Positions 32,095-57,203 of a DNA stretch of 64,000 nucleotides are shown here, piece by piece. The DNA lies in contig JAUXAO010000001.1 of assembly GCA_030619905.1 (NCBI GenBank), forward strand, positions 48,348 to 112,347, in the 5' to 3' direction. The DNA is from a bacterium (GTDB lineage Bacteria; Patescibacteriota; Minisyncoccia; Minisyncoccales; CG1-02-41-26). Numbering within the stretch: the first letter of the stretch is position 1; every line of letters starts with the position of its first letter. The notes under the pieces were generated by a model. The model was not told where the DNA came from and made no database searches. It was given only the letters and a program-made list of their open reading frames with translations. Made by a program: the position numbers and the translations under genes.

Positions 32095-33402
32095 TTATCC
32101 TATTAAAGAGGCGATAATCGAACCTCTAAATAAAATGGTAACAATTAGACCTATGAATATCAAAATAGCAAATGGCGACGGTTTATATACTTCTAATAGT
32201 TTTATTTCTTTTCCTTTCACAAACTCCTTTAAAAATACTATCTGTTCTTCAGTTAGACCATCCGAATAAATCTTACCAATGGATTTTTTAAATAATCCTT
32301 CTTCTTTGCCTTTTAATTTATTGATTGTTTCTTCGGTCAAGCGCATACCTGATTTTAATTCTTCTATTTTGACTTTTTGAATCTCTTTTTCCTTAACATA
32401 CCAATCAAACGTTTTTCTAAAAGCAAAACCTCCAAAAATGATTATGGCTGTAACACTTAACATGGGTCTTATTATGAGAGCAGGAGATTGATTTAAACCA
32501 ATCCATTTATAGAACAACCAGAGAAGAAGAGCTACAGCTGCTACATAAAAAACCTTTTTAATTTTTTGTAAGAATTTCATTAAAAAAACAAAAACTCCTA
32601 AAAAAGTGATAAGCAAAACCCATTTTTCAAGGCCCAATATAATCGTGAAAAAATAAGTTAAATTTTCACCTATAATACTTTTAAAAAAGAGTCCAAAAAA
32701 ACTAACCATAACAAAGAAAATAACAAGAAGATTAAGAATTTCTTTAAATAGTGAGAAAATGCTCCTTTTAAATTCTTTTTCTCGAGCAATTTTTTCTTTT
32801 TCAGTTAAAGTTTCTTTTTTCCTTATAAAAATCCGACGAATAAAAGTGAAAACAAGTATTATTAAAAATATCCCTAAAGCAATAATGAAAATATTCAATA
32901 ATAAAGCAAAAGAAGGAAAATAAGATAAGTACGTTTTTGAATAAAATCTTAAAGGTAAAAGGAAAGAAAAAAGAGTAAAAAGTTTAGCATCTCCAGCCGA
33001 CCAAACATTCCAAAACCACATTAAAAATCCCATTCCTAAAGCGATGCCTGTATTAAGAGCGACTTCGCCGAGATAAGAAAGTTTAAAAACCGAGAAAGAA
33101 TATGGACTGATTTTAAAATATTCAAGAATCCAAAAAGTAAAATTCCAGAGAATATATAAACTAAAGATTGTTATGCCCCATAAAAAACCAATTTTTATCC
33201 ATTTATTTTTGATCTTGCCATATTTAAAATCTTCAAAACTAGTAATAAAACCAATAATAAAAATAGGAATCAAAAAAATATAATCTGTAAAAAAAAATTT
33301 ACTTAATAGAAACATTTTGAATCGGGCGATATTTATCAGTTGTTCCCTCGACAATATATTTTTTCTTGATTGGCTTAAACTCGTCACTGCCAACTTTTTC
33401 AA
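32095..33402 (-). CDS. polytopic integral membrane protein (about 10 TM helices) at the downstream end of the rSAM block
   Basis: Hydrophobic helices throughout. Same strand as the upstream rSAM gene and overlapping it; the true start is probably an internal Met (MFLLSKFFF). Confidence 0.45.
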   Translation of the reverse strand: MKKLAVTSLSQSRKNILSREQLINIARFKMFLLSKFFFTDYIFLIPIFIIGFITSFEDFKYGKIKNKWIKIGFLWGITIFSLYILWNFTFWILEYFKISPYSFSVFKLSYLGEVALNTGIALGMGFLMWFWNVWSAGDAKLFTLFSFLLPLRFYSKTYLSYFPSFALLLNIFIIALGIFLIILVFTFIRRIFIRKKETLTEKEKIAREKEFKRSIFSLFKEILNLLVIFFVMVSFFGLFFKSIIGENLTYFFTIILGLEKWVLLITFLGVFVFLMKFLQKIKKVFYVAAVALLLWLFYKWIGLNQSPALIIRPMLSVTAIIIFGGFAFRKTFDWYVKEKEIQKVKIEELKSGMRLTEETINKLKGKEEGLFKKSIGKIYSDGLTEEQIVFLKEFVKGKEIKLLEVYKPSPFAILIFIGLIVTILFRGSIIASLIG

Positions 33403-34237
33403 GATAATCTTTATGGATACCTAAACAATATTTTTTGTAAAGGCAAACTTCACACTTAGGCAAAAAAGTTATTTCATATTCTGGAAGCGTTCTCCAGGTA
33501 TATTTCCATAAAGAATGGTCAATTGTACAGAGGGGAAAATGATAAAAGCGGAATCCTTTAAATTCTGGAATCCATTTAGCTATTTTTGGTATAAATTTTC
33601 TAAACTGAGTATAGGTTAATCCAACAATTTTGAAGTTTTTTTTTGCTTGACCTTCCATTTCCATAAAAATAATCACGATTCGGTCTACTTCAGGAAAATG
33701 ATCCTTGATAAACTCCAATATTTTCTCAGTATACTTATAAGTAAGCTTAGTAATAATAATTCTTAATTCTAATTCATGAAGACCAAGATTTTTATACTTA
33801 AAAATATTTTCAATCCCTTTTATAGTTTGCAAAAAACTCCCCGGTGTTCTAGTAACAGCATCATGAGTCTTTGCATTAAATCCGTGCAAAGATGTATAAA
33901 TATTTATTCTTTTGAATCTTAAAACCTTTTTAGTAAAAGAATCATAACAAAATCTCCTCCCATTAGTGTCTAATTCTATTATTACCGGGGGAAATATTCT
34001 TTTAATGAAAGAAAGTATTCTAAAAAAATCCGGATGGATTGTTGGTTCTCCACCAGTTAGAATCATTTTATCGTCAATCAAGTTGCCTCTTTCATCGAAA
34101 ATTTTAGCAGCACTAATTCTTTTCTTAAGTTCATTAAAACCGTAATTATCATAGGAATCCTTGGCTTGAAAATCAGACGGATTCGTACACATAATACAGT
34201 TACTATTACATTTATTCCAAATAGAAATCACCGGCAT
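33299..34237 (-). CDS. radical SAM protein (short family 'MPxISIWNKC'; paralog of 42670..43599)
   Basis: CNSNCIMC (CxxxCxxC) at the N-terminus; GGEPT; C-terminal CEVCLYKKYCLGIHKDYLEKVG. Confidence 0.8.
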   Translation of the reverse strand: MPVISIWNKCNSNCIMCTNPSDFQAKDSYDNYGFNELKKRISAAKIFDERGNLIDDKMILTGGEPTIHPDFFRILSFIKRIFPPVIIELDTNGRRFCYDSFTKKVLRFKRINIYTSLHGFNAKTHDAVTRTPGSFLQTIKGIENIFKYKNLGLHELELRIIITKLTYKYTEKILEFIKDHFPEVDRIVIIFMEMEGQAKKNFKIVGLTYTQFRKFIPKIAKWIPEFKGFRFYHFPLCTIDHSLWKYTWRTLPEYEITFLPKCEVCLYKKYCLGIHKDYLEKVGSDEFKPIKKKYIVEGTTDKYRPIQNVSIK

Positions 34238-34271
34238 AATTCAAAATTATATTAAGATTATTATTTTATTT

Positions 34272-34481
34272 CTAATTAATATCAAAAGTGATCCTTTCTT
34301 GCTCTTTAAGCTCTCCAATTATTGCTTCCTCTATCTCGTAGAATTTTGCTTCACTTTTTAACTCTTTTTGAGCGCGAGTTATAGCTTTTTTTATATCTGA
34401 AGCCCTAACATATCCTAATACCTCATAATGTTCCTGACTCCGATAAACGACTATGTATCTCTTTAATAATGTTTTAGCCAT
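34272..34481 (-). CDS. 69-aa hypothetical protein embedded between rSAM genes
   Basis: Tightly packed (overlaps the neighbouring gene by 8 nt); no Cys or His; charged helical composition. Confidence 0.35.
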   Translation of the reverse strand: MAKTLLKRYIVVYRSQEHYEVLGYVRASDIKKAITRAQKELKSEAKFYEIEEAIIGELKEQERITFDIN

Positions 34482-35427: not shown

Positions 35428-35439
35428 CTTTTATTTTGA

Positions 35440-36348
35440 TTATTTCTCTTTAAAATCAAGGATAAACCCATCTGTTTTATCTTTTTTAAGATAAGAATAA
35501 AGGGATGAATTATTTTTAAGTATCTCGATCTTTTTTTCTTTAATGACAATCTTATTTCCTTTTATTATTTTATTAAGTAATGAAAAATCTATCGGAGAAA
35601 TCGGAAGAATCACTTTCTTGTAAAATAAGGTATTTTTTCTAACATATCCATCAAGGATAACCCATTTAAAAACATCAAAAAATAAGATTGGCTTAGAAAG
35701 AGTATATGTTACTACTTTTTCCACCTCAGGGGCATATTTTTTTAATAAAGCATTAATCTCTTTACCTGTTTTTATACTCTTCTGACAATTATAACTACAA
35801 GGAATATGGGAAATAAATTGCAGATATACAATAGGGATGGGAAAACGTTTATTCAAAAGAAGATATTGTTCTAATTTTTCATAGTCTTCTTTAGTATAAA
35901 GCCTAGTGGAAAAATTTAACAAATTATTTGTCAAAAAATTAAACTGTTTACTATTTTGATAGGATTGATAAGTTACAATTGGAGAATAACGTTGAAGGTT
36001 ATGTTGAAAAAAATACGAATGATTTTTAATACAACATTCTGGGTACCCTAATAATTTTCCGATTTTTTCTGAATCTTTTCTAGCAGTAAGGGAATTTACT
36101 GCCTCCTTTGCTATTTCTTTTTTCTTTGAAAGAGCACAGACTGTTATTTGTTTATTTGCTATAATTTTTTGTTTACACTCGATACTTAACTCTGGGAATT
36201 CACGGATAATTATTCTCTTTCTTTTTTCATTAAGATCCATGGTAAAACAAGGTTTTATTCCTGCTATAACTGCTAAAATTTCTTGAAGAATTACGCCTGT
36301 TTTAGAGACATTCAATAGTTTTTTTCTAAGTTTTTGGGATGTATTCAT
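35440..36348 (-). CDS. hypothetical protein (no rSAM motif) conserved inside the rSAM block
   Basis: 302 aa; LGYPECC and HIPCSYNCQ Cys motifs; no recognisable family. Confidence 0.4.
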   Translation of the reverse strand: MNTSQKLRKKLLNVSKTGVILQEILAVIAGIKPCFTMDLNEKRKRIIIREFPELSIECKQKIIANKQITVCALSKKKEIAKEAVNSLTARKDSEKIGKLLGYPECCIKNHSYFFQHNLQRYSPIVTYQSYQNSKQFNFLTNNLLNFSTRLYTKEDYEKLEQYLLLNKRFPIPIVYLQFISHIPCSYNCQKSIKTGKEINALLKKYAPEVEKVVTYTLSKPILFFDVFKWVILDGYVRKNTLFYKKVILPISPIDFSLLNKIIKGNKIVIKEKKIEILKNNSSLYSYLKKDKTDGFILDFKEK

Positions 36349-36412: not shown

Positions 36413-37258
36413 CTATAACCTGAATTCCTTGGTCCAATATAAATCTATATAAGATTTTAAAACTCCGTCGCATTTATCGCTATAAGGACAATTTTTACAT
36501 AAAGGAATTCTTACTTTTTCTGGATTTTTTTCAAGACAAGGAAAAAAATATTTTCTTCCTTCCTTAGGAAGCGCACAAGGAAGAAATTCTACCAGTAAAA
36601 ATTTAAGAGAGAAATCAGTTTTGTAATCTTCTAAGATATTTATCACATACTGACCAAGTTCACTCATCTTCATTATAATCTTTTTACTGCGGGAACGTTT
36701 AGAAAGAGGAGCAGCATTGAGAATATTGATTTCCTTTATTCCTAAATCTTTTACTAAATTAATCATTTTAGGAAGTTCCAGATAATTTATTTTAGTCAAA
36801 AGTAGATTAATAATCAAGCTAAAATTTTCTTTTTTAAGGTCCAATATATTTTTTATTCCCATTATAGTTTGAGAAAAACTTCCATTAACTCGAGTCTGGT
36901 TATCATGTACTTCAGGGGTCGCTCCATTAAGAGAAACAACTATTTGATTAACTCCAGCAGCAAATATTTTTTTAACAAAATCCCTGTAAGCAAGTAGTCG
37001 TCCGTTAGTGGTAAAACCAATTTGCCTAAAATCTAGTTTTTGGGTAAATTCCAAAATTTCAATAAAATCCTTTCTTAAAGTCGGTTCTCTCCCCATAAAA
37101 TTAACAAAATCATAATGTTTTCTGGCTTGGGAAACTTCTTTTTTTATCTGTTTAATGGTTTTTAACTTTAAATCTTCCATATATTCGTCTGCTTCTGAAC
37201 AAAAAATACAATTATTATTACAACGGTAACTAATATATATATAAGGACTAATTTCCAT
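36413..37258 (-). CDS. radical SAM protein (short family)
   Basis: CNNNCIFC; GREPT; C-terminal CKNCPYSDKCDG. Confidence 0.8.
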   Translation of the reverse strand: MEISPYIYISYRCNNNCIFCSEADEYMEDLKLKTIKQIKKEVSQARKHYDFVNFMGREPTLRKDFIEILEFTQKLDFRQIGFTTNGRLLAYRDFVKKIFAAGVNQIVVSLNGATPEVHDNQTRVNGSFSQTIMGIKNILDLKKENFSLIINLLLTKINYLELPKMINLVKDLGIKEINILNAAPLSKRSRSKKIIMKMSELGQYVINILEDYKTDFSLKFLLVEFLPCALPKEGRKYFFPCLEKNPEKVRIPLCKNCPYSDKCDGVLKSYIDLYWTKEFRL

Positions 37259-37272: not shown

Positions 37273-38361
37273 TTATTCTACGTTTTCTTTAATAAATTCT
37301 CTAATTTTTCTCAACCGCTGCTCATCTTTTACTGGTCTAAGCTCCTCTGTTCCATATATCTGAGCATATATTTTCCAAAGACCAGCGCAGTAATTATTTA
37401 AAAGACAAATATTGCATCTTTCTGGCTTTATCTTGCTTTTACTATGAAATTCTTTTGTAGCTAATTGATATTGTTTTTTTACTTTCCCATCGATTAATTT
37501 AATATTTTCTGGCTGGTCAATAATTTGTTGAGCTATAAAATATTGCTCATAATTCTTGAAAAAACATAAAGGAACCATTCCACAACTGGAAATACTAAAA
37601 AATATATCTTTCTTCTTGCAAAGATCCAAGGCTTTTAAAAAATAAGGTTCTACTTCTGAAAGCTTTGGAAATATATGTTTATTTTTCAAAGCGGCACCAG
37701 CAGGATAAATAAAAGAAAAAATTACACACTTTATTGCCGGAAAACAATTAGAAAGAAATTCAATAAAATCAGGAGTATCTTTGTAATTTTGTCTTGCGAT
37801 AATATGATAAATAGAAATATATGCCCCAAGATTCAAGAGATTCTCAATGCCTTTTATGGTCTTCTTAAAGGTATTAGGAGTATCAACCAAATATTCGGAA
37901 ATTTCTTTTTTATGAGAATGAAGAGAGACCGAAAAAGATGGTTGTGTTTTACGAAAAGCAGAAACTATTTTAGCAGCAAATTTCTTATCAGAAAATTTAA
38001 GGGCATTAGTTAAAATACAAATTTTTCTGAACCCTAAATCTTCTGCAAAACTGATCAGTTCAGGCAGGTCTTTTCTTAAAGTTGGCTCTCCTCCGTCAAA
38101 CTGTAATTCTTGATAATTTTCCTCATATCCCTTTTTAATTTCCTTTTTACATTCTTCCGTATCAAGAGTTATTTCAGGATCTTTACTTTCTCTTTTCACA
38201 CAAAAAAGACAATTCTCATTACAAGAAGAAAGTGAAGAAAAATAAAACTTTTTTACTCTTTTAAACATTGATGTTTTTGGCTCAGAGCCATAATTTCTTC
38301 TTGACCATACAAATCTAAATAATCTTTCCAAATCCCACCGCATTCCTTGTAAAACTTGCAT
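37273..38361 (-). CDS. radical SAM protein (short family); true start probably internal (MFKRVKK...)
   Basis: CNENCLFC; GGEPT; C-terminal CNICLLNNYCAGLWKIY. The track ORF overlaps the upstream gene by 109 nt. Confidence 0.75.
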   Translation of the reverse strand: MQVLQGMRWDLERLFRFVWSRRNYGSEPKTSMFKRVKKFYFSSLSSCNENCLFCVKRESKDPEITLDTEECKKEIKKGYEENYQELQFDGGEPTLRKDLPELISFAEDLGFRKICILTNALKFSDKKFAAKIVSAFRKTQPSFSVSLHSHKKEISEYLVDTPNTFKKTIKGIENLLNLGAYISIYHIIARQNYKDTPDFIEFLSNCFPAIKCVIFSFIYPAGAALKNKHIFPKLSEVEPYFLKALDLCKKKDIFFSISSCGMVPLCFFKNYEQYFIAQQIIDQPENIKLIDGKVKKQYQLATKEFHSKSKIKPERCNICLLNNYCAGLWKIYAQIYGTEELRPVKDEQRLRKIREFIKENVE

Positions 38362-39224
38362 TTCACGCAGATACCTATTCTTTCCTTATGGATATCTGTA
38401 TAGATGTCATCTTCCTTTTTTTTAAATCTCACAGGTTTATATCCTATTTGTTTGGCAATGTTTTTCCTACCTTCAGCTGTAATAAAAGTAGTATGAAGAT
38501 TATCTTTTATTTCCGATTTAAAAAGACAAAGAGGGAAATCAAAAAAAGTAACAAGATCAAATTTATTTAAGATGCTTTCAAGATTATTTAAGGCGTCTGA
38601 TAAATCATTCATTCTCACCACTAATGTCTCATAGAAATCTTTTGCATAGCCGTCGGGAATAAGGTCTAAAATATTGAAAAATTTAATTTTTAAAGAGAGG
38701 ATAAACTTCCCCATATCAGTAAGATGAGAATAGTTCAACTTGGAAATTACCGTGTTTACAATAATTATCACTTCAGGAAACTTTTGAATGTTTTTTATTC
38801 CTTGAATAGTTTGTTCAAAAGCATTAGGAGTACGAGTGACAGCATTATGAATTTTTGCATTGTGCCCATAAAGGGAAAAATTGATTCGCCTTACACCATT
38901 TTTAATCAATTCCTCGGCAAAATCATTATAACTCAACATTCTTCCATTGGTACTCAGGGCTATATCTTTATAACCTAAATCTTTAGCAGATTTTATTAAA
39001 TCTAAAATATCTTTTCTTATAGTTGGTTCACCACCAGTAAATTCTACTCTTCTAAAGCCCTGCTTTATGCCTTTTTGAAGATCGTCTAATATTTCTTGAG
39101 TAGTCCTGTCTTTATAATTCTTCTCTTTGGGCTTAGTGGTACACATAATACAGTTATTATTACATGAAAACCCAAGCATGGCTAAAAATACTTGATCTGA
39201 TGGTTTATTTAAAGATTGAGGCAT
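38253..39224 (-). CDS. radical SAM protein (short family)
   Basis: CNNNCIMC; GGEPT; C-terminal CVKCKFYKECGGIWKDY. Confidence 0.8.
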   Translation of the reverse strand: MPQSLNKPSDQVFLAMLGFSCNNNCIMCTTKPKEKNYKDRTTQEILDDLQKGIKQGFRRVEFTGGEPTIRKDILDLIKSAKDLGYKDIALSTNGRMLSYNDFAEELIKNGVRRINFSLYGHNAKIHNAVTRTPNAFEQTIQGIKNIQKFPEVIIIVNTVISKLNYSHLTDMGKFILSLKIKFFNILDLIPDGYAKDFYETLVVRMNDLSDALNNLESILNKFDLVTFFDFPLCLFKSEIKDNLHTTFITAEGRKNIAKQIGYKPVRFKKKEDDIYTDIHKERIGICVKCKFYKECGGIWKDYLDLYGQEEIMALSQKHQCLKE

Positions 39225-39227: not shown

Positions 39228-40145
39228 TTAAATTTTTGTATTTTTAGTTTCTACTGGTTTAAATTCTTCCCAGCCAAAAATTTGGGGATATTCTTTCCAT
39301 GGACCTTCACAAATTTTGAAATATTTACATTTTGAACAGTTCGGACCTTTGAGTTTCCCTTCTCTCCTTCTATATTCGCCATAATCCTCAATAGACCATT
39401 CAGCATCATAGACCGACCCATTTGGGATTCCCTTTTCAGCAATATAATCTTCATAGCCTTTCATAAAACAATAAGGAATAGCTTCAGTCATTACTCTTAC
39501 CCCTGCATCTATACCAATTTGAAGACCTTTTCTAACATAAGACATTATTTTGGATTTTCGAGGAACAATTTCATCTATTAATTTTTTATTTTCTAAAAGG
39601 ATATGATTAATGTGGATAAAAGCGAATTGGAATTGGTCAACTCCTAGACTTACCAGAAGTTTTGCAATCTGGGGGAGATATCTATAATTAGGTTTGGTAA
39701 TCACCGTATTCATGAGAATACGTTGACCTAACGATTTAAGATTCTTTATACCGGTAGTACTCTGCTTAAAACTTCCAGGAACAGTAGTTAAACTATCGTG
39801 AAGTTTAGCATTATGACCATGTAGGGCTAAAGCAAATTCGTTAGCTCCTTTTTTAATTAAATTCTCACAAAACTTTTTATAAGCAAACATCCGTCCATTG
39901 GTCTGAATCTGAATTACCTTAAAATCTAATTCCTTTGCATATTTAACAAGATCTGGTAAGTCTTTTCTAATAGTTGGTTCGCCACCGGTAAAAACTAGTG
40001 CCTCATGTTTTTTCCGGGCCTCTCTTAAAATCCTTTTAATTTCTTTAGTAGTTTTATCAGGGTATTCCTCTCTTTTATTTCCTTGGACGCAAAATCGACA
40101 ACGATTATTACATTGAAAACCTACTTTTATATCTACTCTCTGCAT
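39228..40145 (-). CDS. radical SAM protein (short family)
   Basis: CNNRCRFC; GGEPT; C-terminal CSKCKYFKICEGPWKEY. Confidence 0.8.
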   Translation of the reverse strand: MQRVDIKVGFQCNNRCRFCVQGNKREEYPDKTTKEIKRILREARKKHEALVFTGGEPTIRKDLPDLVKYAKELDFKVIQIQTNGRMFAYKKFCENLIKKGANEFALALHGHNAKLHDSLTTVPGSFKQSTTGIKNLKSLGQRILMNTVITKPNYRYLPQIAKLLVSLGVDQFQFAFIHINHILLENKKLIDEIVPRKSKIMSYVRKGLQIGIDAGVRVMTEAIPYCFMKGYEDYIAEKGIPNGSVYDAEWSIEDYGEYRRREGKLKGPNCSKCKYFKICEGPWKEYPQIFGWEEFKPVETKNTKI

Positions 40146-43599: not shown

Positions 43600-43615
43600 G
43601 ATACAATTAAATAAT

Positions 43616-43762: not shown

Positions 43763-43765
43763 TCT

Positions 43766-47811: not shown

Positions 47812-48272
47812 TATATTAAATACTAAAAAACATTAAAACTATTATTCTCTCTATTCTTTTTATCTATAGAATTTCTAAATATTCATACTAATAGATTTTA
47901 TGATACTTCTTTTTGAATCGAATTCAATAGACTTGAACCGATAAAAAAATGAACCTGCAGATACGACCGTTATTATTTTATTTTTAGGATCACCAGAATT
48001 TGTAGGAAGTGAGAAATTTATTATAGTAATATCTTTTTTCCTACTCATAATTTATTTATCTTTTATAACTATATCTAAAAAATACTTTATAAATAATTAA
48101 TAACTATTTCCTCCTAAGATGATAGTTATGTCCATCAGAAATACTTTTTACTTAAATAAAAAATAAACACTTAATTTCTTCATCGTTGGATTTGATAATA
48201 AGTGTAAAAACTTGAGATAACTTTTTCAATTTTTGCTATAAAATGCTTACGAGATCAATTACCTTAGAGATG

Positions 48273-48818
48273 TTATTCTATAATCAATTTTAGCTCGGCT
48301 ATAATGGAATTAAACATTCCAACTAATAAATCGTCGTCTTTCGATACAGCAATGGCTTGGTCTCTACCAGGATAGACTGGTTCTGTAAAAAGTATTAGTT
48401 CTTTTCTTTCCTCTGAAATTGTTAAGTCAAAAATTGCATCGCATTTTCTTTCGCTCAGAGCAGGGATAATTTTAGGCCAAGGAACATAATAATAGGTAAT
48501 CTTTATGCCTAATCCTTCTTCTATTGCTTCAGCAATATCTTTATACAATACAGAAGGCACATAGAATCTATCTTGACAGATAGTTATTTCTTTTTTCACA
48601 GCAATATCAGAATTCTCTTTTAACCAACTAACCAATAATTCTTTCTGTTGACCTTCAAGACTAAAATCTAACGGCAGGAATTTCTCTCTGACCTGAAGAT
48701 CTGTTTCAGGAGGAAGATTATTATTAGAAAGAGAAAAATAAATGACACAGCCTAAAACTGCTGAAATAATAATCAAGATAACAAGTATTTTCTTATTTCT
48801 AAAATTAAATAATTTCAT
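48273..48818 (-). CDS. membrane-anchored fragment of a family-3 solute-binding protein (SBP_bac_3 N-lobe only)
   Basis: N-terminal TM helix; the CDAIFDLTISEERKELILFTEPVY block matches the SBP_bac_3 signature D-x6-T-x2-R-x5-F-[ST]-x-P-[YV]; the residue preceding the final P is E rather than the usual S/T (…FTEPVY), so the fit is close but not exact. Only 181 aa, against about 250-280 for a full SBP. Confidence 0.45.
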   Translation of the reverse strand: MKLFNFRNKKILVILIIISAVLGCVIYFSLSNNNLPPETDLQVREKFLPLDFSLEGQQKELLVSWLKENSDIAVKKEITICQDRFYVPSVLYKDIAEAIEEGLGIKITYYYVPWPKIIPALSERKCDAIFDLTISEERKELILFTEPVYPGRDQAIAVSKDDDLLVGMFNSIIAELKLIIE

Positions 48819-48820: not shown

Positions 48821-50182
48821 TTATTTAATAGAGCAAAGTTCCTTTTCTACTTTATAAAGTAGATACTCCTTGCTACATTTTTGTTTTGTACTACATCTCT
48901 CCCGATTAACTTTGAACATATCACCTGTCAAAGCGATCGTTTTACTATGACATCCTCCTGCACAATTCCATTTTAAGAAACAATTTTGACAGGATTGCAT
49001 ATTGCAAACTATTCTTTTCTGTAAATAATTAATCCTTTTTTGGTTAAAAACAATTTTCTTTCTTTTTTTATCAAACCTTCCATATATTAATTCTTTCGGA
49101 GCCGTTCTTCCAAGATAGGCTTCATAACAACAGCTGATATAACTATCAGGCGTAAGAAATATATTAGGAATGGAAGCACCACAATGAGCACATGATCTTC
49201 TGTAAACTGGTAAAAAAGCACTTATTAATTTAATATTTAATTCATCCGCTAATTTTTTTGCTTCCAAATAATTCTCTATGTATAAAGCTAGGTCAGGCGC
49301 TTTGGAAAAATTATCTTTTGGCTTAAAGCTCCTTCCTGCCTCAAATATTGGCTCAAAATGAACTGATTTTATGCCTAATTTATGAAAATATTTAATTATT
49401 TCTCTCTGTTTTGTAACGGAAAAAGCAGAAATTGTAGATCTTACTGAAAAAGGATAGTTATTTTTTACCAGGAATTCAATAGTTTTCTCGACAAAAGGAC
49501 TACTTTTATCTCCATCCTTTAATGGCCTCTGTCTATCCTGAATACGAGGTGGCCCATCTATAGATACAGAAAGTTGAAAATTATTCTTTATTAAATAAAC
49601 AAGGGTTGTTTTAGGAAGTTTACCGTTTATTTGGGTACCAAAATTTAATTTATCTATCTTCTTCTCGGCATATTTAATTATTTTCTTTATTAAACCAATT
49701 GCTAAAGTGGGTTCTCCTCCTCCATGAAAGTAAATATTCAAAGATTTTTTATTTCTCTCCGAAATATAATCTAAAACTGTTTTAACAAAACTGAAGTCAA
49801 TTGTTTCCTTTATATCTCCTCCTTGAGCAAAACAATACTTACACTTTAGATTACAGTCAGTAGTCAAAAGGATGAAGAGGTCACCATAATATCGAAACTT
49901 AGTATAAGGATTACAGTAAGAACGAAAAATATTACTATCTTTATTTAACAACAACTTAGCTTGAGAAAATGCTTTTTGTTTATCTTTCGGTATCTTCTTA
50001 GAATTAAGCAGATTTTTTGCCTCTTTATCTAATAAAAAAACTCTGTTTAGCAAAGAACTATAAAGAACATAATCATTTTTTATTTTACCAATATAATGTA
50101 GGTCTGGTATAATTTTTAAATCATCACCGAAACTTATTTTTGCATACGAATTATCTAAAAAATCAATAAAGTTTATTCTCAT
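48821..50182 (-). CDS. radical SAM/SPASM protein directly upstream-adjacent to the HxS-repeat genes (HxsB/HxsC-like candidate)
   Basis: CNLKCKYCFAQGGDIKE; GGGEPT; SPASM (CAHCGASIPNIFLTPDSYISCC ... CQNCFLKWNCAGGCH). Confidence 0.8.
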   Translation of the reverse strand: MRINFIDFLDNSYAKISFGDDLKIIPDLHYIGKIKNDYVLYSSLLNRVFLLDKEAKNLLNSKKIPKDKQKAFSQAKLLLNKDSNIFRSYCNPYTKFRYYGDLFILLTTDCNLKCKYCFAQGGDIKETIDFSFVKTVLDYISERNKKSLNIYFHGGGEPTLAIGLIKKIIKYAEKKIDKLNFGTQINGKLPKTTLVYLIKNNFQLSVSIDGPPRIQDRQRPLKDGDKSSPFVEKTIEFLVKNNYPFSVRSTISAFSVTKQREIIKYFHKLGIKSVHFEPIFEAGRSFKPKDNFSKAPDLALYIENYLEAKKLADELNIKLISAFLPVYRRSCAHCGASIPNIFLTPDSYISCCYEAYLGRTAPKELIYGRFDKKRKKIVFNQKRINYLQKRIVCNMQSCQNCFLKWNCAGGCHSKTIALTGDMFKVNRERCSTKQKCSKEYLLYKVEKELCSIK

Positions 50183-50205: not shown

Positions 50206-50745
50206 TTATATTTCTGCCCCAACTCCCGCACAACAAGGACAAGCACTACCATGGGAAGAATGATTAGAATGGGAGTCGTGAGAACTATGGGAACCATGAG
50301 AACCATGAGAAGAATGAGAAGAATGGGAGGCATGAGAACAATGAGATTGATGAGAACTATGAGAACTGTGAGATCCATGAGATCCATGAGATCCATGGGA
50401 AGAATGGGAAGAATGGGAACTGTGCGAGCCATGCGAGCCGTGGGAAACATGGGATCCATGAGAGCCATGCGAGCCATGAGAGACATGAGAAGAATGGGAG
50501 CCATGCGAGCCATGGGAAACATGAGAAGAATGGGATGTATGGGAGGCATGGGAAGAATGGGAAGAGTGGTCACATTTCCACTCTGCCTGAACATCCTTAG
50601 CGATCATAGACCCTCCTACAGCTGCACCTAACACAAGAAGCATTGTTCCTGCTTTAACAATGTCTTTTTTATTGACATTTCCTTCTTCAGAGGTAAGAAA
50701 GGCTTTAATATTCTTTTTAAATTTTGGCAATAATTTGTTTTCCAT
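50206..50745 (-). CDS. His-Xaa-Ser repeat precursor-like protein (HxsA-like), copy 1: leader followed by about 35 consecutive HxS triplets and a Cys-rich tail
   Basis: MENKLLPKFKKNIKAFLTSEEGNVNKKDIVKAGTMLLVLGAAVGGSMIAKDVQAEWKCD, then HSS HSS HAS HTS HSS HVS HGS ... HGS, then ACPCCAGVGAEI. The leader is shared with copy 2. Confidence 0.8.
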   Translation of the reverse strand: MENKLLPKFKKNIKAFLTSEEGNVNKKDIVKAGTMLLVLGAAVGGSMIAKDVQAEWKCDHSSHSSHASHTSHSSHVSHGSHGSHSSHVSHGSHGSHGSHVSHGSHGSHSSHSSHSSHGSHGSHGSHSSHSSHQSHCSHASHSSHSSHGSHGSHSSHDSHSNHSSHGSACPCCAGVGAEI

Positions 50746-50770: not shown

Positions 50771-51166
50771 TTAACACCAACCACCCTGAGCATGAGAACT
50801 ATGAGAACCGTGTGAGGCATGAGAACAATGGGAACTATGGGAACGATGGCAAGAACTATGAGATCCATGGGAAGAATGGGAAGAATGGGAACTGTGCGAG
50901 CCATGCGAGCCATGAGAGACATGAGAAGAATGGGAGCCATGCGAGCCATGAGAGACATGAGAAGAATGGGAAGAATGGGAACCATGGGAAGAATGTTCAC
51001 ACTCAGGCCACTGGGCTTGCACTTCACGAGCAATCATAGACCCTCCTACAGCTGCACCTAACACAAGAAGCATTGTTCCTGCTTTAACAATGTCTTTTTT
51101 ATTGACATTTCCTTCTTCAGAGGTAAGAAAGGCTTTAATATTCTTTTTAAATTTTGGTAGCTTCAT
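50771..51166 (-). CDS. His-Xaa-Ser repeat precursor-like protein (HxsA-like), copy 2: same leader followed by about 22 HxS triplets and a Cys/Trp tail
   Basis: MKLPKFKKNIKAFLTSEEGNVNKKDIVKAGTMLLVLGAAVGGSMIAREVQAQWPECE, then HSS HGS HSS HSS HVS ..., then AQGGWC. Confidence 0.8.
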   Translation of the reverse strand: MKLPKFKKNIKAFLTSEEGNVNKKDIVKAGTMLLVLGAAVGGSMIAREVQAQWPECEHSSHGSHSSHSSHVSHGSHGSHSSHVSHGSHGSHSSHSSHSSHGSHSSCHRSHSSHCSHASHGSHSSHAQGGWC

Positions 51167-51719: not shown

Positions 51720-52802
51720 CTAAAAGCAAATCTCTTCCTCTATTCTTTGAATATAATGGTTAAATAAGTTGTTACTTAAAGCATTAAGTTTAATTTTCTT
51801 GGAGGCTTTTAAACAAAGATTACGGCATATTCCATATACTTTCTCAGCTTTTTTATCAGCATAAGGATAATCAGAAGAATAATTTAATTGGCACATCTGA
51901 CAATTATGATTTTTAAAATTATATTTGCACTTTTTAAAACTTCCAAAAAATCCGGAATTAACATTGCCAATAATATATTTCTCTTTATCTGGAGAGTTTA
52001 ACAAAAAAGGGGAAAAGGCCATTATGCCTGAGGGATAAACTTCCAGGTTATACCAGAAAGGACATTCGATCCTAAGCGATTGACTGATTTTCTGATACTT
52101 AATTTCCCAATTAACCGGATTTAGAAATATAAAGTTCTCTTTTTGAATATTAATGAGAATAAAATCTATAATTTTATTGAAACTCGAAATAAATTTCTTC
52201 TGAGCCTCTTTTGACCATTCTTCGTACTGCTGGATTATTTCAAAACTCATATGATTAAAGCCGAGTTTTAATAGATGTTTAAAATTCTTTTCCATCCTTA
52301 TTACCGTAGAAGGAAATAAACAGAAACCAACGCCTAAATTCTTTCTGGGAATTTTTTCAAAAATCATTGGTAGTTTTTTTGAAATTATTTCATAAGTACC
52401 TTCGTTTTTCTCCAGATTTCTGAATTTATCCTGGTCAGACCTTCCTCCCACCAAGCTGATAATTAATTTTATGTCATGTTTTTCTAGAAAATCTAAATGT
52501 TTTTTTTCGAGCAAAACAGCGTTCGTACAAACTGTTGTGGTCAAATTCTTTTTCAACTTTTTAGCTTGAGATATCGCATAAGGTACCATTTCCTTAATTA
52601 ACTTAAAATTAAGTAAAGGTTCACCGCCATAAATTGATAAAAGTTTATCTTCCCCCCGCGATTTTAACAACAAATCAATACTATTTTTGGCAGTAGTAAG
52701 GTCCATGTATTCATTAGTCTTTTTTACAAAACAGTAATCACAGTTAAGATTACATTTTGTAGTTATGGCTAATTTTATTCTGTTTATTCGTTTTTTTATC
52801 AT
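51720..52802 (-). CDS. radical SAM protein with Cys-rich C-terminal (twitch/SPASM-like) region
   Basis: CNLNCDYC; GGEPL; C-terminal CPFWYN ... CQMCQLNYS ... CRNLC. Confidence 0.75.
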   Translation of the reverse strand: MIKKRINRIKLAITTKCNLNCDYCFVKKTNEYMDLTTAKNSIDLLLKSRGEDKLLSIYGGEPLLNFKLIKEMVPYAISQAKKLKKNLTTTVCTNAVLLEKKHLDFLEKHDIKLIISLVGGRSDQDKFRNLEKNEGTYEIISKKLPMIFEKIPRKNLGVGFCLFPSTVIRMEKNFKHLLKLGFNHMSFEIIQQYEEWSKEAQKKFISSFNKIIDFILINIQKENFIFLNPVNWEIKYQKISQSLRIECPFWYNLEVYPSGIMAFSPFLLNSPDKEKYIIGNVNSGFFGSFKKCKYNFKNHNCQMCQLNYSSDYPYADKKAEKVYGICRNLCLKASKKIKLNALSNNLFNHYIQRIEEEICF

Positions 52803-52803
52803 T

Positions 52804-53664
52804 TTATCTAAAATAAACCTCCAATTGTTTATTTTTAATAGCTATGAAGCTAACTCTAAAGTTTTTAACATGAGTTTTAATTTGTTCTAAAAAAGATTTA
52901 TGGGAGCTGAAACAAGACATTTTTGAAAACTGTTTGAAATCTAATCCTTTACAGCGAAAATATATGTCTTTTGAAAAAGGTTTATTATTTCTAAATCTAG
53001 TTAGTAAACCAATTCTTTTTATCGGCTTCAACTTATTAAGTTGTTGGAATACATTTTTCTCTTCCTTTCTTAAAATTTTAGAAGATGCTTTTATCGCCTG
53101 ATAAATTTTTAATGAACACTCACCATTTGGATAAAAATCGAAAATAATATTTTCTATATTAGTAAAATTTTGGTAAAGTGACTCCCATCTCTTTATTCCC
53201 AAAAATTTGCCTATAGTGGGTAGTAATTTAGTACTAACAGGATTTAAACCGATGCTAATTTTATCGAATTGGTTGCTAAAAGAATTAAAATCAACGTAAA
53301 ATACGATTACGTCATTTTTTCTTCCATGGGATAATGGAATAGATAAGATAAAATCTAAGATTTTTCGGTTAAACTTGAATTTAAAATTATCACTAATTTT
53401 TTTAAAAATATTTAATAGAATATCGCCTTTTATAAAATCTTGACATTTTTTTCGTCCAGAAAGCTTTGAATAATGAAAACAATAGGTAGCCTTAACCACT
53501 TTAAATTTTTCCATAGTGTTAAAAGAACTTTCAATATGATATCTTACCTTAGATTTTCTTAGATTATCGCCTAAATCAACTATCTTAAAAAATAACTTCT
53601 GGGTCTTTTTCGGGACTTTTATTAAAAATTTACTCGCCCATTTTTTATATTTATTTCTAGTCAT
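52804..53664 (-). CDS. hypothetical protein (no rSAM motif) inside the Hxs-like core
   Basis: 286 aa, basic, no recognisable motifs; packed at 2-nt spacing between rSAM genes. Confidence 0.4.
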   Translation of the reverse strand: MTRNKYKKWASKFLIKVPKKTQKLFFKIVDLGDNLRKSKVRYHIESSFNTMEKFKVVKATYCFHYSKLSGRKKCQDFIKGDILLNIFKKISDNFKFKFNRKILDFILSIPLSHGRKNDVIVFYVDFNSFSNQFDKISIGLNPVSTKLLPTIGKFLGIKRWESLYQNFTNIENIIFDFYPNGECSLKIYQAIKASSKILRKEEKNVFQQLNKLKPIKRIGLLTRFRNNKPFSKDIYFRCKGLDFKQFSKMSCFSSHKSFLEQIKTHVKNFRVSFIAIKNKQLEVYFR

Positions 53665-53680
53665 AATGGTCTACTTTTAG

Positions 53681-54787
53681 TCATAATGGTCTACTTTTCC
53701 ATTTTAAGATATTCTTTATTTTTAGAAAAGAAGAAATATAAATTTTTGAAATATTACAAAAGGTTTTAAAATATTTTTTAAAATCTTTCTCATTCTCAAT
53801 GCACCAGAGATATAAACCTATAGGACAAAAACAGTAATTTTCTAAAGAACACTTCAGACAACTATTTTGAGTTGATTCAACTATTTCTCTTTTTGCCTTT
53901 TTTAATAGCTCTAATCTTTTTACATAATTAACTCCTTTTTCTCCATTGCCAATTATGTATTTTTTTCTTCTGTTATCAAAGAAAGAAAATATTTTGTCAC
54001 AAAGATAAAAGTTCCCATCTGGACCTAATATCAGTTTTTGGCAGCAGAAATTATCACTATCTTTGTTCAACATCCTATTTATAAAAAGAATTTCGAGAGA
54101 AGAATCATAATTAGAATTCAAACTGCTATAAAATTCAGCAAATATATCAAATTCTTTTTTTAAAACATTAAGATGCTTCTTTGACCATAATCTATATATT
54201 TCTGGATAAAAATCTAGCTGGGAAAAACCATTCTCAACAAAAAACTTAATATTTTTGTTAAAATATTCTACTGTTTCCGGAGTAAAAACCGAACAAATCT
54301 TAATCTTTTTTTTATCCAAATCCTTGATATTACCCCAAGTTGTCTTAAAAACAGAAGATTTTCCATCTTTAAACACTCTATTTATATCATTTATATTTTT
54401 TCTACCATCTAGGCTCACTGAAAGAACAATATTATTTTTCTTTAAAAAGTCATACTTTTTTTTATTAAGTAAAGTTCCATTGGTAGAAACTATTATAATA
54501 GATTCCTTCCCTTTTTGGTTTTTCCTAACCGATTCTATTAATTTTTTTAGAGAAGACCAATATAACAAAGGTTCTCCTCCGGTAAAACTTATAACAGGAT
54601 TTTCTGAAGGATTTCTCAAAAAGAAATTAATTCCTTTTTTTATTAAAGGAATATTTAAAGGGATTTTTCTCAGGTTTTCTTTATCAATAAAACAATAGCT
54701 GCAATCAAGATTGCAGCTCCCACCAAGAAAAATAGAAAGAGAATGATATTTCATAAATAATACTAATGTTATCTTCTGCTGGTCCAT
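53681..54787 (-). CDS. radical SAM/SPASM-like protein (HxsC-like candidate)
   Basis: CNLDCSYC; GGEPL; C-terminal CCQKLILGPDGNFYLC ... CLKCSLENYCFC. Confidence 0.75.
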   Translation of the reverse strand: MDQQKITLVLFMKYHSLSIFLGGSCNLDCSYCFIDKENLRKIPLNIPLIKKGINFFLRNPSENPVISFTGGEPLLYWSSLKKLIESVRKNQKGKESIIIVSTNGTLLNKKKYDFLKKNNIVLSVSLDGRKNINDINRVFKDGKSSVFKTTWGNIKDLDKKKIKICSVFTPETVEYFNKNIKFFVENGFSQLDFYPEIYRLWSKKHLNVLKKEFDIFAEFYSSLNSNYDSSLEILFINRMLNKDSDNFCCQKLILGPDGNFYLCDKIFSFFDNRRKKYIIGNGEKGVNYVKRLELLKKAKREIVESTQNSCLKCSLENYCFCPIGLYLWCIENEKDFKKYFKTFCNISKIYISSFLKIKNILKWKSRPL

Positions 54788-56214
54788 TTCTTAAGCACCT
54801 TTAAACTCTTGGGTTCTTCGAATTTCTGGAATAGATAATCTAAGATACCTCTGTTTACCTGACAGCGAAAATTATTTGGAGTCTGGGAAAAAATGTTATC
54901 ACCTTCAGAATAATTAAAGACAGGACAAACTCCACAATAAGGAAGGTAAACGCACTCGCTGCATCCGCTAAGCCCTTCTAATGTGGAAGCAAGACATAAA
55001 GATTTAGTTACTGGTGAAGAAATAATTTCCTCATAACTATTTTTGTAGACATTACCAATTTTAAATGTCTCATCACCCATCTGACCGAGCATTCTTCCCT
55101 CATCGCACGTGTAAATGTCTCCGTTATAATGATAAGCTATCTGGCCGATACCTGCTCCACAAGGGGAGCGAAGATCTAAAAAATTAGGATCATTATCAGT
55201 AAATACTTTTTGAATAATTATAGCTGCTGTTCTTTCTCTAATCCTTACTCCTTTGATATTTAATTTTATAATATAGTCTAACGCCTTCTTGTAAAATTCA
55301 AGAAATTCCTCTGCTGTATATCCTATCACCTTTTGAAGACTCTTGGCCATTCCAAAAGGATTAAGGGGTCTTAGATGAATATCTCTCGCGCCTAATTTCA
55401 CATATTCATCGACAATCTCTTTCCAGAAAGGAAGAGAATATCGGGTTGTGGTTACTAAAGCGTTTACTCGATATCCCAAACCCCTATATTTATCTTTTAC
55501 CTTTTTAATTCTTTGTAATGTAATAGAATGACCATTCTTTTTATTAATCATTGGCCTATTCTTATTATGAAGCTTTTCTGGTCCGTCCAAGGAACTGCAC
55601 ATAGAAATCTTTTTGTTATAGAGCCAATTTAATTTCTTGTCATCCAAGAGTGTCAGGGTGGAAACTAAACTAAACCTTAATTTTTTCTTTGCTTTCTTAT
55701 TTTTCTCAAGCGCATAATCTACAATAAATTTAACTATCTCAAAATTTGCCAATGGTTCTCCTCCCTGAAATTCAATAATAATCTCAGAGGAAGTAGTTTG
55801 GAAAATCATATCTACTACCTTTTTGGCCGTCTTTTTCGTCATATCTAAATCTTTCCTAGCCATACTTTTCGAGGAAGCATGACAATATATACAAGCATGG
55901 TCGCAACGAAGAGTAATAACAATAATATGCAAACTTGGTCCTTGGGTTAAATATTTATGACGCTGAGCATATATTTGAGTCATCTGCATCTGACAATTTT
56001 GACAATTCCACGATTCAGAAGTAAAATGTTTTTTATCTAATTCCTTGTAGATAATACTGTTTCTTTTCAATTTACCTTGCGTGAAATCTTTAAATTCCTT
56101 TTCCTTAAGGAATCTAAAATCACCAAGATCATTGGTTAAAAGATATTTATTTCCTAATTTCCTAAAGCGAAGAAGTCCTGTTGAATTAATTTTTGATTTA
56201 TTATGATTATGCAT
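54769..56214 (-). CDS. radical SAM/SPASM protein with an N-terminal extension (about 100 aa) (HxsB-like candidate)
   Basis: CDHACIYC; GGEPL; SPASM (CGAGIGQIAYHYNGDIYTC ... CSECVYLPYCGVC). Adjacent to the HxsD-like gene. Confidence 0.8.
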   Translation of the reverse strand: MHNHNKSKINSTGLLRFRKLGNKYLLTNDLGDFRFLKEKEFKDFTQGKLKRNSIIYKELDKKHFTSESWNCQNCQMQMTQIYAQRHKYLTQGPSLHIIVITLRCDHACIYCHASSKSMARKDLDMTKKTAKKVVDMIFQTTSSEIIIEFQGGEPLANFEIVKFIVDYALEKNKKAKKKLRFSLVSTLTLLDDKKLNWLYNKKISMCSSLDGPEKLHNKNRPMINKKNGHSITLQRIKKVKDKYRGLGYRVNALVTTTRYSLPFWKEIVDEYVKLGARDIHLRPLNPFGMAKSLQKVIGYTAEEFLEFYKKALDYIIKLNIKGVRIRERTAAIIIQKVFTDNDPNFLDLRSPCGAGIGQIAYHYNGDIYTCDEGRMLGQMGDETFKIGNVYKNSYEEIISSPVTKSLCLASTLEGLSGCSECVYLPYCGVCPVFNYSEGDNIFSQTPNNFRCQVNRGILDYLFQKFEEPKSLKVLKKWTSRR

Positions 56215-56410
56215 TTTTAATTAATCCTAAAACATAATTACAAAATTCTTCTTTTATCACATTTCTTGATTCTGGATCTATATTTTTCAAATCAACTTTG
56301 ATATTTTTTTTACCCACTTCTATATCAAAATCAGCCAATCCTTTATAGTCATGGATGGCTTTTTCAATAGATTTCAGATTGTAAAAATTCCTATTGAAGT
56401 TAATAGTCAT
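56207..56410 (-). CDS. 67-aa hypothetical protein between the HxsD-like gene and the rSAM gene
   Basis: Overlaps both neighbours by 4-8 nt (translational coupling); no motifs. Confidence 0.3.
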   Translation of the reverse strand: MTINFNRNFYNLKSIEKAIHDYKGLADFDIEVGKKNIKVDLKNIDPESRNVIKEEFCNYVLGLIKNA

Positions 56411-56844
56411 GATTTTTTCTTCTCTCCATATCTTTCTTCCCAGGGTACAGCAATCCCAAGAGGATCTTCTTCAAATACTTCTTCTACTCCTTTTTCTCTC
56501 GTCTCTTGGGGAGAAAGAGCAGAAAATAAAGCTCTTTCAACAATAGTATCGCGAATCTTTCCTGTATTCTTGGCAATAGACAGTCTTAAAACATAATTCA
56601 GAAGTTCATTCTTAAATTCCCCGACTAATATTTCCAGTTCCTTGGAATTTAATTCCTTTTTTCCTTTTATGGAAACTTTTATTTCTTTTTTAGGATTCCC
56701 ATTTAAAAATAAATAAGCCCGATCAATAAAAACATAACAGGCTCCATAAACAGCTTCTAAAGGATACACGTCAGGATTAAGAGAGATTATAATCTCATTC
56801 TTTTTTTTAGTAATTTTTATACTTTTTTTATTTTTTGATTTCAT
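56407..56844 (-). CDS. HxsD-like protein (His-Xaa-Ser system accessory protein candidate)
   Basis: 145 aa. It contains ELLNYVLRL, resembling the LLNDYxLRE signature after which the HxsD family model is named. Located first in the operon. Confidence 0.45.
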   Translation of the reverse strand: MKSKNKKSIKITKKKNEIIISLNPDVYPLEAVYGACYVFIDRAYLFLNGNPKKEIKVSIKGKKELNSKELEILVGEFKNELLNYVLRLSIAKNTGKIRDTIVERALFSALSPQETREKGVEEVFEEDPLGIAVPWEERYGEKKKS

Positions 56845-57203
56845 TTACTTTTCTGATAATTAACGAATTTACTTATTTTAGTGGCTGTAAATTTACTGAT
56901 CTCATCTATTTTTTCATAGGTTGGTTCTTTGGTACTGATTACTATACAATCTCCTTTTCTAAATCTCGAAAACATTATGAGAGATTCTTTCTTTGTGGCC
57001 ATATCATATAATACAAGTTTAGTTTTTGGGGTAAGTTTAATTGTTTTTTTCATAAAAGGAGCCTTGGCCGTGCTAATTTTTGAAGTATCTGCATTCAAAA
57101 CCAAACTCTTTGGAATTGAGTAGTCAATTTTTAAAATCTTGCCTTCTATTAGATTAGGAGGATATTCTAACTCAGGCTGTATTTGTTTCTTCTTTTTTCG
57201 CAT
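56841..57203 (-). CDS. cluster-specific protein, paralog of 51163..51630 (lacks the TM anchor)
   Basis: Shares the YPPNLIEGK and SKFTATKISKF motifs with 51163..51630. Confidence 0.4.
   Translation of the reverse strand: MRKKKKQIQPELEYPPNLIEGKILKIDYSIPKSLVLNADTSKISTAKAPFMKKTIKLTPKTKLVLYDMATKKESLIMFSRFRKGDCIVISTKEPTYEKIDEISKFTATKISKFVNYQKSK

Follow-up and report, generated by a model that had tools for sequence, protein, structure and literature searches.

In a 64,000-nt stretch of a Patescibacteriota genome (contig JAUXAO010000001.1 of assembly GCA_030619905.1, positions 48,348 to 112,347; hereafter the window), the block of minus-strand genes at window positions 32095-57203 encodes an Hxs-type system with 15 radical S-adenosylmethionine (rSAM) enzymes. 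With moderate confidence, we regard this block as a real, chromosomal and greatly enlarged Hxs-type maturation locus, the product of which would be trimmed of its leader by an A24-type protease and would act as an effector in the cell envelope. This reading is carried by gene identities, synteny, the conservation of the precursor leader, and the fold and invariant aspartates of the protease, all of which were observed here. Membership in the Hxs system was judged by the curated NCBIfam cut-offs (families of Haft & Basu). HxsB, HxsD, HxsD_rel, and two HxsA4 precursors all scored above these cut-offs, in agreement with a preliminary description made from the sequence alone. The 15 rSAM open reading frames (ORFs) of that description were also found: 15 minus-strand ORFs with a CxxxCxxC motif lie between 33299 and 56214, and all of them are intact and passed Pfam Radical_SAM (PF04055) with 42-101 bits against the gathering cut-off of 29.5. 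The block as a whole contains 27 intact ORFs and one gene remnant, in the order u120, HxsD, HxsDrel, HxsB, B2, u286, B3, u155, two HxsA genes, and onward to the protease gene. The genes on which the argument depends are as follows.

56407..56844, minus strand: HxsD (TIGR03976, 63.9 bits against a cut-off of 50)
56207..56410, minus strand: HxsD-related small protein, HxsDrel (NF038315 HxsD_rel, 70.3 bits against 41), which follows HxsD in many loci
54769..56214, minus strand: HxsB, an rSAM/SPASM maturase (TIGR03978, 535.9 bits against 370 over the full model length; Pfam Radical_SAM and SPASM)
50771..51166, minus strand: HxsA precursor b, with leader, hydrophobic segment, 22 HxS triplets, and the tail HAQGGWC (NF038313 HxsA4, 71.0 bits against 55)
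50206..50745, minus strand: HxsA precursor a, with a leader as in precursor b, 35 HxS triplets, and the tail ACPCCAGVGAEI (NF038313, 96.4 bits against 55)
39228..40145, minus strand: C6, an HxsC-type rSAM enzyme conserved across phyla (best match HxsC4, 184.4 bits against 500)
32095..33402, minus strand: divergent, polytopic A24/GxGD-type intramembrane aspartyl protease (likely start at 33312, 405 aa)

Both HxS precursors noticed in the preliminary description are real, and their 35 and 22 triplets are in register. The canonical HxsA model did not match either of them at E ≤ 0.01, and only the A4 and A3 variants did. The window precursors share the conserved leader PKFKKNIKAFLTSEEGNVNKKD, and the consensus (L/I)PxIKKxIKxFL(T/S)SEEGK(I/V)xKK was found in 59 precursors from several phyla. 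In precursors of the type seen in Patescibacteria, Elusimicrobiota, and Omnitrophota, the order after the leader is K-x-(G/A), hydrophobic segment, and HxS repeats, with G or A directly preceding the hydrophobic segment. Many Myxococcota precursors have neither the leader motif nor the hydrophobic segment. The precursor cores often open with Cys and close with GSW, GQW, GGWC, or a Cys-rich tail. The tail of precursor a was identical in L091, L092, and L094 (L-numbers denote related loci or contigs from other genomes or metagenomes, limited to ±10 kb around the matched gene). The preliminary description had listed one HxsD-like protein; HxsD is indeed present, but there are two HxsD-type genes, HxsD and HxsDrel. 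In some Patescibacteria, the HxS region and a conserved domain of about 330 aa at the C-terminus, starting with CPF(I/V)xxWNGK, form a fusion (L001:18301-19968, L032:3311-4825, and L088:7334-8863), and HxsA in these genomes is one portion of a larger protein.

The last gene of the block had been described as encoding a polytopic membrane protein. This was correct, but its identity as an A24-type protease had been missed. D28 and D108 were invariant in 46 family sequences. In the second Asp motif, W-x-A-G-D-A-K-L, the Gly at −1 is kept, and position −3 has S, A, or P in place of G. The predicted model of the protein has the fold of a FlaK-like GxGD protease. PF01478 was matched by 35 of the 46 family members at E ≤ 0.01 (best E, 6e-8), and a precomputed match to it was present in 20 of 88 profile hits, some of which are named prepilin, FlaK, or CpaA peptidase. 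DGL and PFA are conserved motifs in the additional C-terminal half of about 200 aa. A24 enzymes act on class III signal peptides and cut them at the edge of the hydrophobic helix that faces the cytoplasm. Since a cut of this type at the cytoplasmic edge would remove exactly the conserved leader, the protease is proposed as the leader peptidase, and, judged from these sequence features, it is probably the leader peptidase of the HxsA precursors. In L088 (GCA_964450805.1), a type IV pilus set (T2SSE, T2SSF, two N_methyl pilins, and a genuine PilD A24 peptidase; positions 1-4956) lies directly upstream of the Hxs locus, and that locus ends in its own A24-like gene besides the PilD of the pilus set.

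The 15 rSAM enzymes comprise one true HxsB, eight HxsC-like proteins of about 300 aa (C1-C8), four HxsB/PapB-like proteins (B2-B5), and two generic SPASM proteins (S1 and S2). Those other than HxsB and C6 are listed below.

53681..54787, minus strand: B2, PapB/HxsB-like (NF047865 PapB, 147.5 bits against 340; Radical_SAM passed), CxxCx5C at residue 310; start at 54736 according to the gene callers in the close strain
51720..52802, minus strand: B3, PapB-like with a divergent C-terminus (PapB, 138 bits over the N-terminal two-thirds only; Radical_SAM passed), eight Cys beyond the core without an exact CxxCx5C
48821..50182, minus strand: B4, PapB/HxsB-like with an N-terminal extension of about 100 aa (PapB, 140 bits; HxsB, 100 bits), 43% identical to B5; L091 ortholog at 908 bits
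45949..47811, minus strand: B5, 620 aa, PapB/HxsB-like (PapB, 141 bits), extended at the C-terminus by about 200 aa that are conserved in orthologs from L002, L022, and L091
45054..45995, minus strand: C8, HxsC-like (best match HxsC4, 145 bits against 500), 61% identical to C2
43766..44821, minus strand: S2, generic SPASM rSAM (AhbD, 228 bits against 500; Pfam SPASM, 41.7 bits); callers' start 44785
42670..43599, minus strand: C7, HxsC-like, the paralog nearest to canonical HxsC (TIGR03977, 184.6 bits against 267.9), 50% identical to C1
40155..41297, minus strand: S1, SPASM rSAM (SbtM, 166 bits, and ACGX, 157 bits, both below cut-off; Pfam SPASM, 45 bits); callers' start 41213
38253..39224, minus strand: C5, HxsC-like (HxsC4, 163 bits; HxsC, 122 bits)
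37273..38361, minus strand: C4, HxsC-like (HxsC4, 114 bits; HxsC, 104 bits; Radical_SAM passed); callers' start 38268
36413..37258, minus strand: C3, HxsC-like (HxsC4, 114 bits; HxsC, 94 bits), orthologs in L022 and L100
34474..35427, minus strand: C2, HxsC-like (HxsC4, 150 bits), first gene of the terminal module C2-s69-C1-protease
33299..34237, minus strand: C1, HxsC-like (TIGR03977, 165 bits against 267.9)

The motif GGEP, which had been ascribed to all 15 enzymes, is present in 12 of them, but the remaining three have GGEM (twice) or GREP (once). C-terminal Cys clusters proved more frequent than the earlier figure of at least seven, with CxxCx5C found in 14 of 15. Pfam SPASM matched only HxsB, S1, and S2, and the auxiliary Fe-S clusters are putative. 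As had been suggested, the enzymes scored with peptide-maturase families, and no cut-off of a cofactor pathway was reached (best, AhbD at 228 bits against 500). NirJ2 was also among the best families for S2 and, like AhbD, was well below its cut-off. Identities as AhbD, NirJ, MoaA, or PqqE were rejected because the scores were far under the curated cut-offs. A search with C6 yielded 2450 homologs, of which the top 120 were 61-93% identical and named merely 'radical SAM protein'. A C6 ortholog (at least 35% of the self-score) occurred alongside HxsB in 33 loci, that is, 19 GTDB HxsB loci and 14 others. C6 is probably a core partner of HxsB. The terminal module C2-s69-C1-protease was also found in L088 and L102. 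PADLOC, the 2023 library of which predates the description of HXS, returned only generic viperin-type rSAM matches, and an exact-protein look-up of the window HxsB returned no record.

The relatives of HxsB number in the thousands, and the closest are from Patescibacteria. A search of one genome for each GTDB species yielded at least 577 loci with HxsB, and the neighborhoods of the 80 most similar to the window HxsB were surveyed; these 80 belong to Patescibacteria, Elusimicrobiota, Omnitrophota, Myxococcota, and others. Up to 10 kb to either side of HxsB, the number of rSAM genes had a median of 4 and a maximum of 9 and was at least 3 in 51 of the 80 loci; the window itself has 6 within this distance. 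Counts of at least 10 (L100) and at least 9 (L106) were reached before the locus ran off. The preliminary description had called the window locus exceptional against a norm of two rSAM enzymes. Its 15 are the largest number seen here, but multi-rSAM loci are common outside Proteobacteria, and two is the proteobacterial form only. The locus is thus the top of a continuum and not a singular outlier, being the largest among loci viewed at ±10 kb. A recurrent gene order, HxsD, HxsDrel, HxsB, HxsA, one or more B-like rSAMs, several HxsC-like rSAMs, and an A24-like membrane protease, was found in L016, L027, L069, L088, and L102, and it spans loci of Patescibacteria, Elusimicrobiota, and Omnitrophota. 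HxsB, HxsD, HxsDrel, and C6 were widely conserved, C2 was less so, and the other genes of the block were lineage-limited. The combinatorial or iterative modification of the repeat peptides that the preliminary description had suggested is not supported as stated. Among 37 loci, the rSAM count was correlated negatively with the number of repeats (rho = −0.44), and an idea that enzyme number tracks repeat number was rejected on this basis. Its correlation with the diversity of the X residue in the same 37 loci was weak (rho = 0.33, p = 0.045). A literature search revealed no account of HxsA4 or HxsC4, of Hxs loci with multiple rSAM enzymes, or of an A24 protease linked to Hxs.

Escherichia coli HXS is an antiphage system that blocks the entry of phage DNA and has the gene order HxsD-HxsB-HxsC-HxsA (Li et al., Nat Commun 2026; PMC13128918). 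HxsB, HxsC, and also HxsD must be present there for HxsA's non-canonical N-terminal cleavage, a +8 Da modification, the presence of HxsA in the periplasm, and defense; the modification is at an SHRSS motif, and the cleaving protease was not identified (PMC13128918). The same study placed 99.7% of HXS systems in Pseudomonadota and described more than 99.8% as four-gene systems (PMC13128918). These percentages reflect the database sampled, and neither fits the data from metagenome-assembled genomes (MAGs) obtained here. The block resembles E. coli HXS in encoding equivalogs of HxsB and HxsD and a substrate that has HxS repeats and, at its N-terminus, an export or hydrophobic segment; in E. coli, N-terminal processing and modification, which precede export, depend on the rSAM enzymes. 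On the other hand, the E. coli system has four genes, two rSAM enzymes, five HxS repeats, a peptidoglycan-binding HxsA, and no dedicated protease, whereas the block has 15 rSAM enzymes and two precursors with 22 and 35 repeats, without a peptidoglycan-binding domain and without any protein that reaches the HxsC cut-off. It has in addition an HxsD-related protein, an A24-type protease, and extracytoplasmic accessory proteins, and its gene order does not match the E. coli order. CHRSHSS in precursor b merely resembles the SHRSS motif. Among the NCBIfam variants (HxsA4 NF038313, HxsA3 NF038309, HxsC4 NF038332, and HxsD_rel NF038315), the precursors passed HxsA4 and the small protein passed HxsD_rel; HxsC4 was the best match for six of the eight HxsC-like paralogs, yet none is a member (184 against 500 bits).

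Two other groups of known systems were compared. With the SPASM/twitch maturases (PapB for ranthipeptides, SCIFF, nif11-type, and SbtM), the block shares the CxxxCxxC core, the C-terminal CxxCx5C, substrate-adjacent genes, and a presumed leader dependence, but all of its scores were far under the cut-offs of these families. To our knowledge, the number of enzymes in this one locus far exceeds that in characterized clusters for ribosomally synthesized and post-translationally modified peptides (RiPPs). With the class III signal-peptide/A24 systems (PilD, FlaK, and PibD), it shares the modeled GxGD fold and the two invariant Asp residues, and the precursors resemble the substrates of these enzymes in that the predicted −1 residue, after a charged leader and before a hydrophobic helix, is G or A. 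The differences are the leader of about 33 aa with FLTSEEG, the absence of Glu5 and of a pilin domain, and the extra C-terminal half of about 200 aa in the protease.

From these observations we infer the substrate-enzyme relations, the cleavage site, the export, and the biological role as follows. The substrates would be the two ribosomally made HxsA4-type proteins, each consisting of a cytoplasmic leader, a hydrophobic segment, and 22 or 35 HxS triplets with a Cys/Trp tail. They would be modified in the cytoplasm by HxsB with HxsD and HxsDrel, plus the conserved HxsC-type enzyme C6, and the 13 accessory rSAM enzymes, accreted and turned over in the lineage, would also modify them. The modified protein would be inserted or exported via the hydrophobic segment. 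The A24/GxGD protease would then remove the leader at the cytoplasmic edge of this segment, around K-A-G|T, and leave the His/Ser-rich modified domain at or outside the membrane, where the anchored PAD-like protein, SBP-like protein, and u155 (see below) could act. Judged by analogy to the E. coli system, the product would most likely act as an effector in the envelope, e.g., by blocking the entry of phage DNA.

The other genes and gene relics of the block are the following.

56841..57203, minus strand: u120, small protein and paralog of u155, first gene after ClpP (no family match; YP(P/N)NLIEG motif in common with u155)
52804..53664, minus strand: u286 (no Pfam or NCBIfam match), with an ortholog only in the close strain L089
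51163..51630, minus strand: u155, small protein with a membrane anchor, encoded immediately upstream of the precursors (N-terminal hydrophobic segment, KD17 of 3.2)
48273..48818, minus strand: SBP-like protein, short and membrane-anchored with a partial SBP_bac_3-like domain (PF00497, 51 bits, partial; N-terminal transmembrane segment)
47875..48048, minus strand: 57-aa in-frame remnant of a B12-binding rSAM enzyme (a 16th rSAM), in the 461-nt gap, which it explains
43600..43765, minus strand: non-coding relic, a copy of the C8-like 3' end upstream of C7 (153 nt, 88% identical to 45015-45167)
41312..42502, minus strand: PAD-like protein, a putative membrane-anchored enzyme of the peptidyl-arginine deiminase (PAD)/agmatine deiminase superfamily (PF04371, 30.8 bits against 25; N-terminal transmembrane segment)
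35440..36348, minus strand: DUF483-family protein with invariant LGYPxCC and HxPCxxxC motifs
34272..34481, minus strand: s69, small conserved protein between C2 and C1 (no convincing family match)

Several of these genes keep their positions elsewhere. Orthologs of u120 sit between ClpP and HxsD in L001, L004, and L089, those of u155 are upstream of HxsA in L001, L002, and L086, and those of s69 occupy the same position in L032, L084, and L088. No significant similarity was found between u286 and a 286-aa protein of L001. The DUF483-family protein gave a confident predicted model without an informative fold match. What had been called an SBP fragment does contain only a partial SBP_bac_3 domain, but it is a conserved anchored protein of about 180 aa with the same length in L091 and L092 (277 bits to L091). 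The assignment to the PAD superfamily is tentative, with a cut-off passed weakly; the protein has GGSIRC at the C-terminus, near which a catalytic Cys is expected in this superfamily, and its PDB sequence match had an E value of only 0.007. Its orthologs were found only in L084/L085 and L091/L092, and a metagenome scan with it as the query found no relative. Because the precursors are nearly devoid of Arg (none in precursor a and one in precursor b), a peptidyl-arginine substrate for this enzyme is not obvious. The N-terminal membrane anchors of the PAD-like protein, the SBP-like protein, and u155 indicate that these three probably act outside the cytoplasm.

A promoter-like site matching at 11 of 12 positions (51697-51668) precedes u155 and the precursors. 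The PAD-like gene is preceded by a 12/12 site (42593-42565) and followed by a 15-bp hairpin terminator (41313-41278), and it is probably a transcription unit of its own as judged from these signals. The junctions within the block are as closely spaced as had been stated, with two larger gaps of 232 and 461 nt; neither gap contains a further precursor-like ORF, and no Rfam RNA was found within the block. All genes of the block are on the minus strand, but this feature, which had been presented as one of the block, is not specific to it, since the ORFs of at least 120 aa are on this strand from about 14.2 kb to 64 kb of the window. Trigger factor and ClpP are encoded upstream of the block and RNase Y downstream, and fifteen tRNA genes in several small clusters lie at 11579-18856 and 28724-28872. 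The tRNA clusters and these housekeeping genes are in keeping with a chromosomal location rather than one on a mobile element. Immediately downstream of the block, a minus-strand gene at 30985-32025 encodes a Cys-containing secreted or anchored repeat-domain protein; it has its own 12/12 consensus promoter at 32088-32059 and is also downstream in L084.

The gene content of the block has changed among close relatives. The 57-aa ORF in the 461-nt gap is an in-frame internal-deletion relic of a 16th rSAM gene, since its halves match the two ends of a B12-binding rSAM enzyme: its N-terminal 35 aa and C-terminal 25 aa are 71% and 84% identical, respectively, to the ends of a 454-aa protein, L091:4539-5903, with Pfam B12-binding and Radical_SAM domains. 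Intact copies of this gene are present in L091 and L092, beside that of a DUF6580 membrane protein, and a B12-binding rSAM gene is directly upstream of the B5 ortholog in L002 and L003. Both flanks of S2 carry a copy of the C8|C7 junction (43577-43765 and 45015-45053), and a relic of the start of C7 follows C8. In L091, C8 and C7 are adjacent and S2 is inverted, and S2 of L091 is 92% identical to that of the window in nucleotide sequence, compared with about 82% for its neighbors. These sequence relations suggest that S2 moved recently. L089 is from a close strain (HxsB protein, 96% identical; DNA, about 88% over the stretch); at 5609-6619 it has an extra 336-aa alpha/alpha-toroid protein with weak Prenyltrans/TED matches between B3 and u155, which the window lacks. 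L086 has a rearranged locus (10903-18139), in which the A24-like and C6 genes have 66-80% protein identity to those of the window; it carries glycosyltransferase genes (GT2 and PMT_2), small transposase-like helix-turn-helix ORFs, and a split S1, and points to decay or remodeling of the locus in some lineages.

Several points weigh against the reading as an enlarged Hxs locus with its own leader peptidase. The window protease alone did not match PF01478, and its motif is (S/A)AGD rather than a strict GxGD. The A24-like gene was found in 7 of 32 loci whose precursor has a hydrophobic segment and in 0 of 19 without one (Fisher p = 0.037), an association that is weak and confounded by phylogeny and truncated loci. 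An AxA-like site (VQA|E) follows the hydrophobic segment in the window precursors, so signal peptidase I could cleave there instead, and the A24-like protein may have another substrate. The cut-offs of HxsC (267.9 bits; best paralog, 184.6) and HxsC4 (500 bits; best paralog, 184.4) were not reached by any paralog. No peptidoglycan-binding Pfam domain was found in either precursor, even at E ≤ 10. The near-consensus promoters and the terminator inside the block make several transcription units likely. Finally, the PAD-like gene, S2, and others look like movable accessories.

These points have to be set beside the alternatives. An assembly artefact, i.e., a collapsed or chimeric paralog-rich region, had been named as the finding that would overturn the preliminary description; it was not borne out, and we consider it very improbable. 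HxS repeat DNA, with its 9-nt period over about 330 and 200 nt, is hard to assemble, and the related contigs end or carry runs of N there, so that the exact number of HxS repeats is uncertain. However, the paralogs are divergent, with top protein identities of 61% (C2/C8), 50% (C1/C7), and 43% (B4/B5), and the longest similar DNA outside the HxS repeats is 153 nt at 88%. Independent contigs are also collinear with the block: L084 gave a single 14.9-kb alignment to 46560-31660 at 92% nucleotide identity, L089 aligned to 57254-51712 at 88%, and L091/L092 aligned to about 50.5-45.0 kb. Together, L084/L085, L089/L090, and L091/L092, which come from other samples, reproduced the gene order across nearly all of the block. 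It is also conceivable, albeit unlikely in our view, that a small Hxs core (HxsD, HxsDrel, HxsB, HxsA, and C6) lies beside one or more unrelated rSAM pathways. The limitation of wide conservation to HxsB, HxsD, HxsDrel, C6, and less so C2, the promoter- and terminator-like sites, a co-orientation that runs far past the block, and a gene content that varies even between strains of about 90% identity would all fit such a composite. Against it, dozens of loci in several phyla have an HxsC-like array behind HxsB/HxsA that ends in the same protease, 12 of the 14 rSAM enzymes other than HxsB are paralogs of the HxsC or HxsB/PapB type, none reached the cut-off of a cofactor pathway, and the gaps contain no other precursor-like ORF.

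The main rival reading concerns the nature of the product. It is possible, though doubtful, that the locus makes a secreted RiPP-type product, either an antimicrobial or a His-rich metal-binding peptide, with the rSAM enzymes installing thioether or C-C crosslinks on the Cys/Trp tail and the repeats. The B- and S-type enzymes scored best against RiPP maturases (PapB, SCIFF, nif11, and SbtM), the cores open with Cys and have Trp/Tyr or a Cys-rich tail at the end, all being residues typically found in crosslinks, the more than 20 His in each precursor suggest metal binding, and the peptidoglycan-binding domain of the E. coli type is absent. However, a hydrophobic segment combined with an A24-type protease speaks for retention of the product in the membrane, the fusion of HxS to a domain of about 330 aa in L001, L032, and L088 looks like a protein and not a small metabolite, and the usual RiPP exporter or immunity genes were not found. 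The sole experimentally studied Hxs system, moreover, functions in defense (PMC13128918).

Returning to the membrane-retained envelope effector, a bolder version of this reading is speculative and rather unlikely. The HxsA4 proteins would be a new class of prepilin-like surface proteins, and the GxGD protease would remove the leader that had first recruited up to 15-16 rSAM enzymes. The result would be a heavily modified, His-rich, membrane-anchored or fiber-forming coat on ultra-small bacteria, with the HxsC paralogs acting on distinct HxS contexts or on the Cys/Trp tail. A host-supplied protease of this type may also explain the cleavage of E. coli HxsA.

Hxs was experimentally characterized only in 2026, as a four-gene proteobacterial defense system (PMC13128918). 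The locus in the window and its relatives show that the commoner environmental form of Hxs is a far larger, modular system built on the conserved core HxsD, HxsDrel, HxsB, HxsA, and C6. Some Hxs loci, that of the window included, end in a dedicated A24-type protease, which is a testable candidate for the unexplained N-terminal processing. Loci with 2 to 15-16 rSAM enzymes form a natural series for dissecting the effect of each enzyme on the HxS repeats. The genomes of the relatives are roughly 0.6 Mb, as estimated from related MAGs, and the assignment of about 25 kb to one modified protein family implies strong selection.

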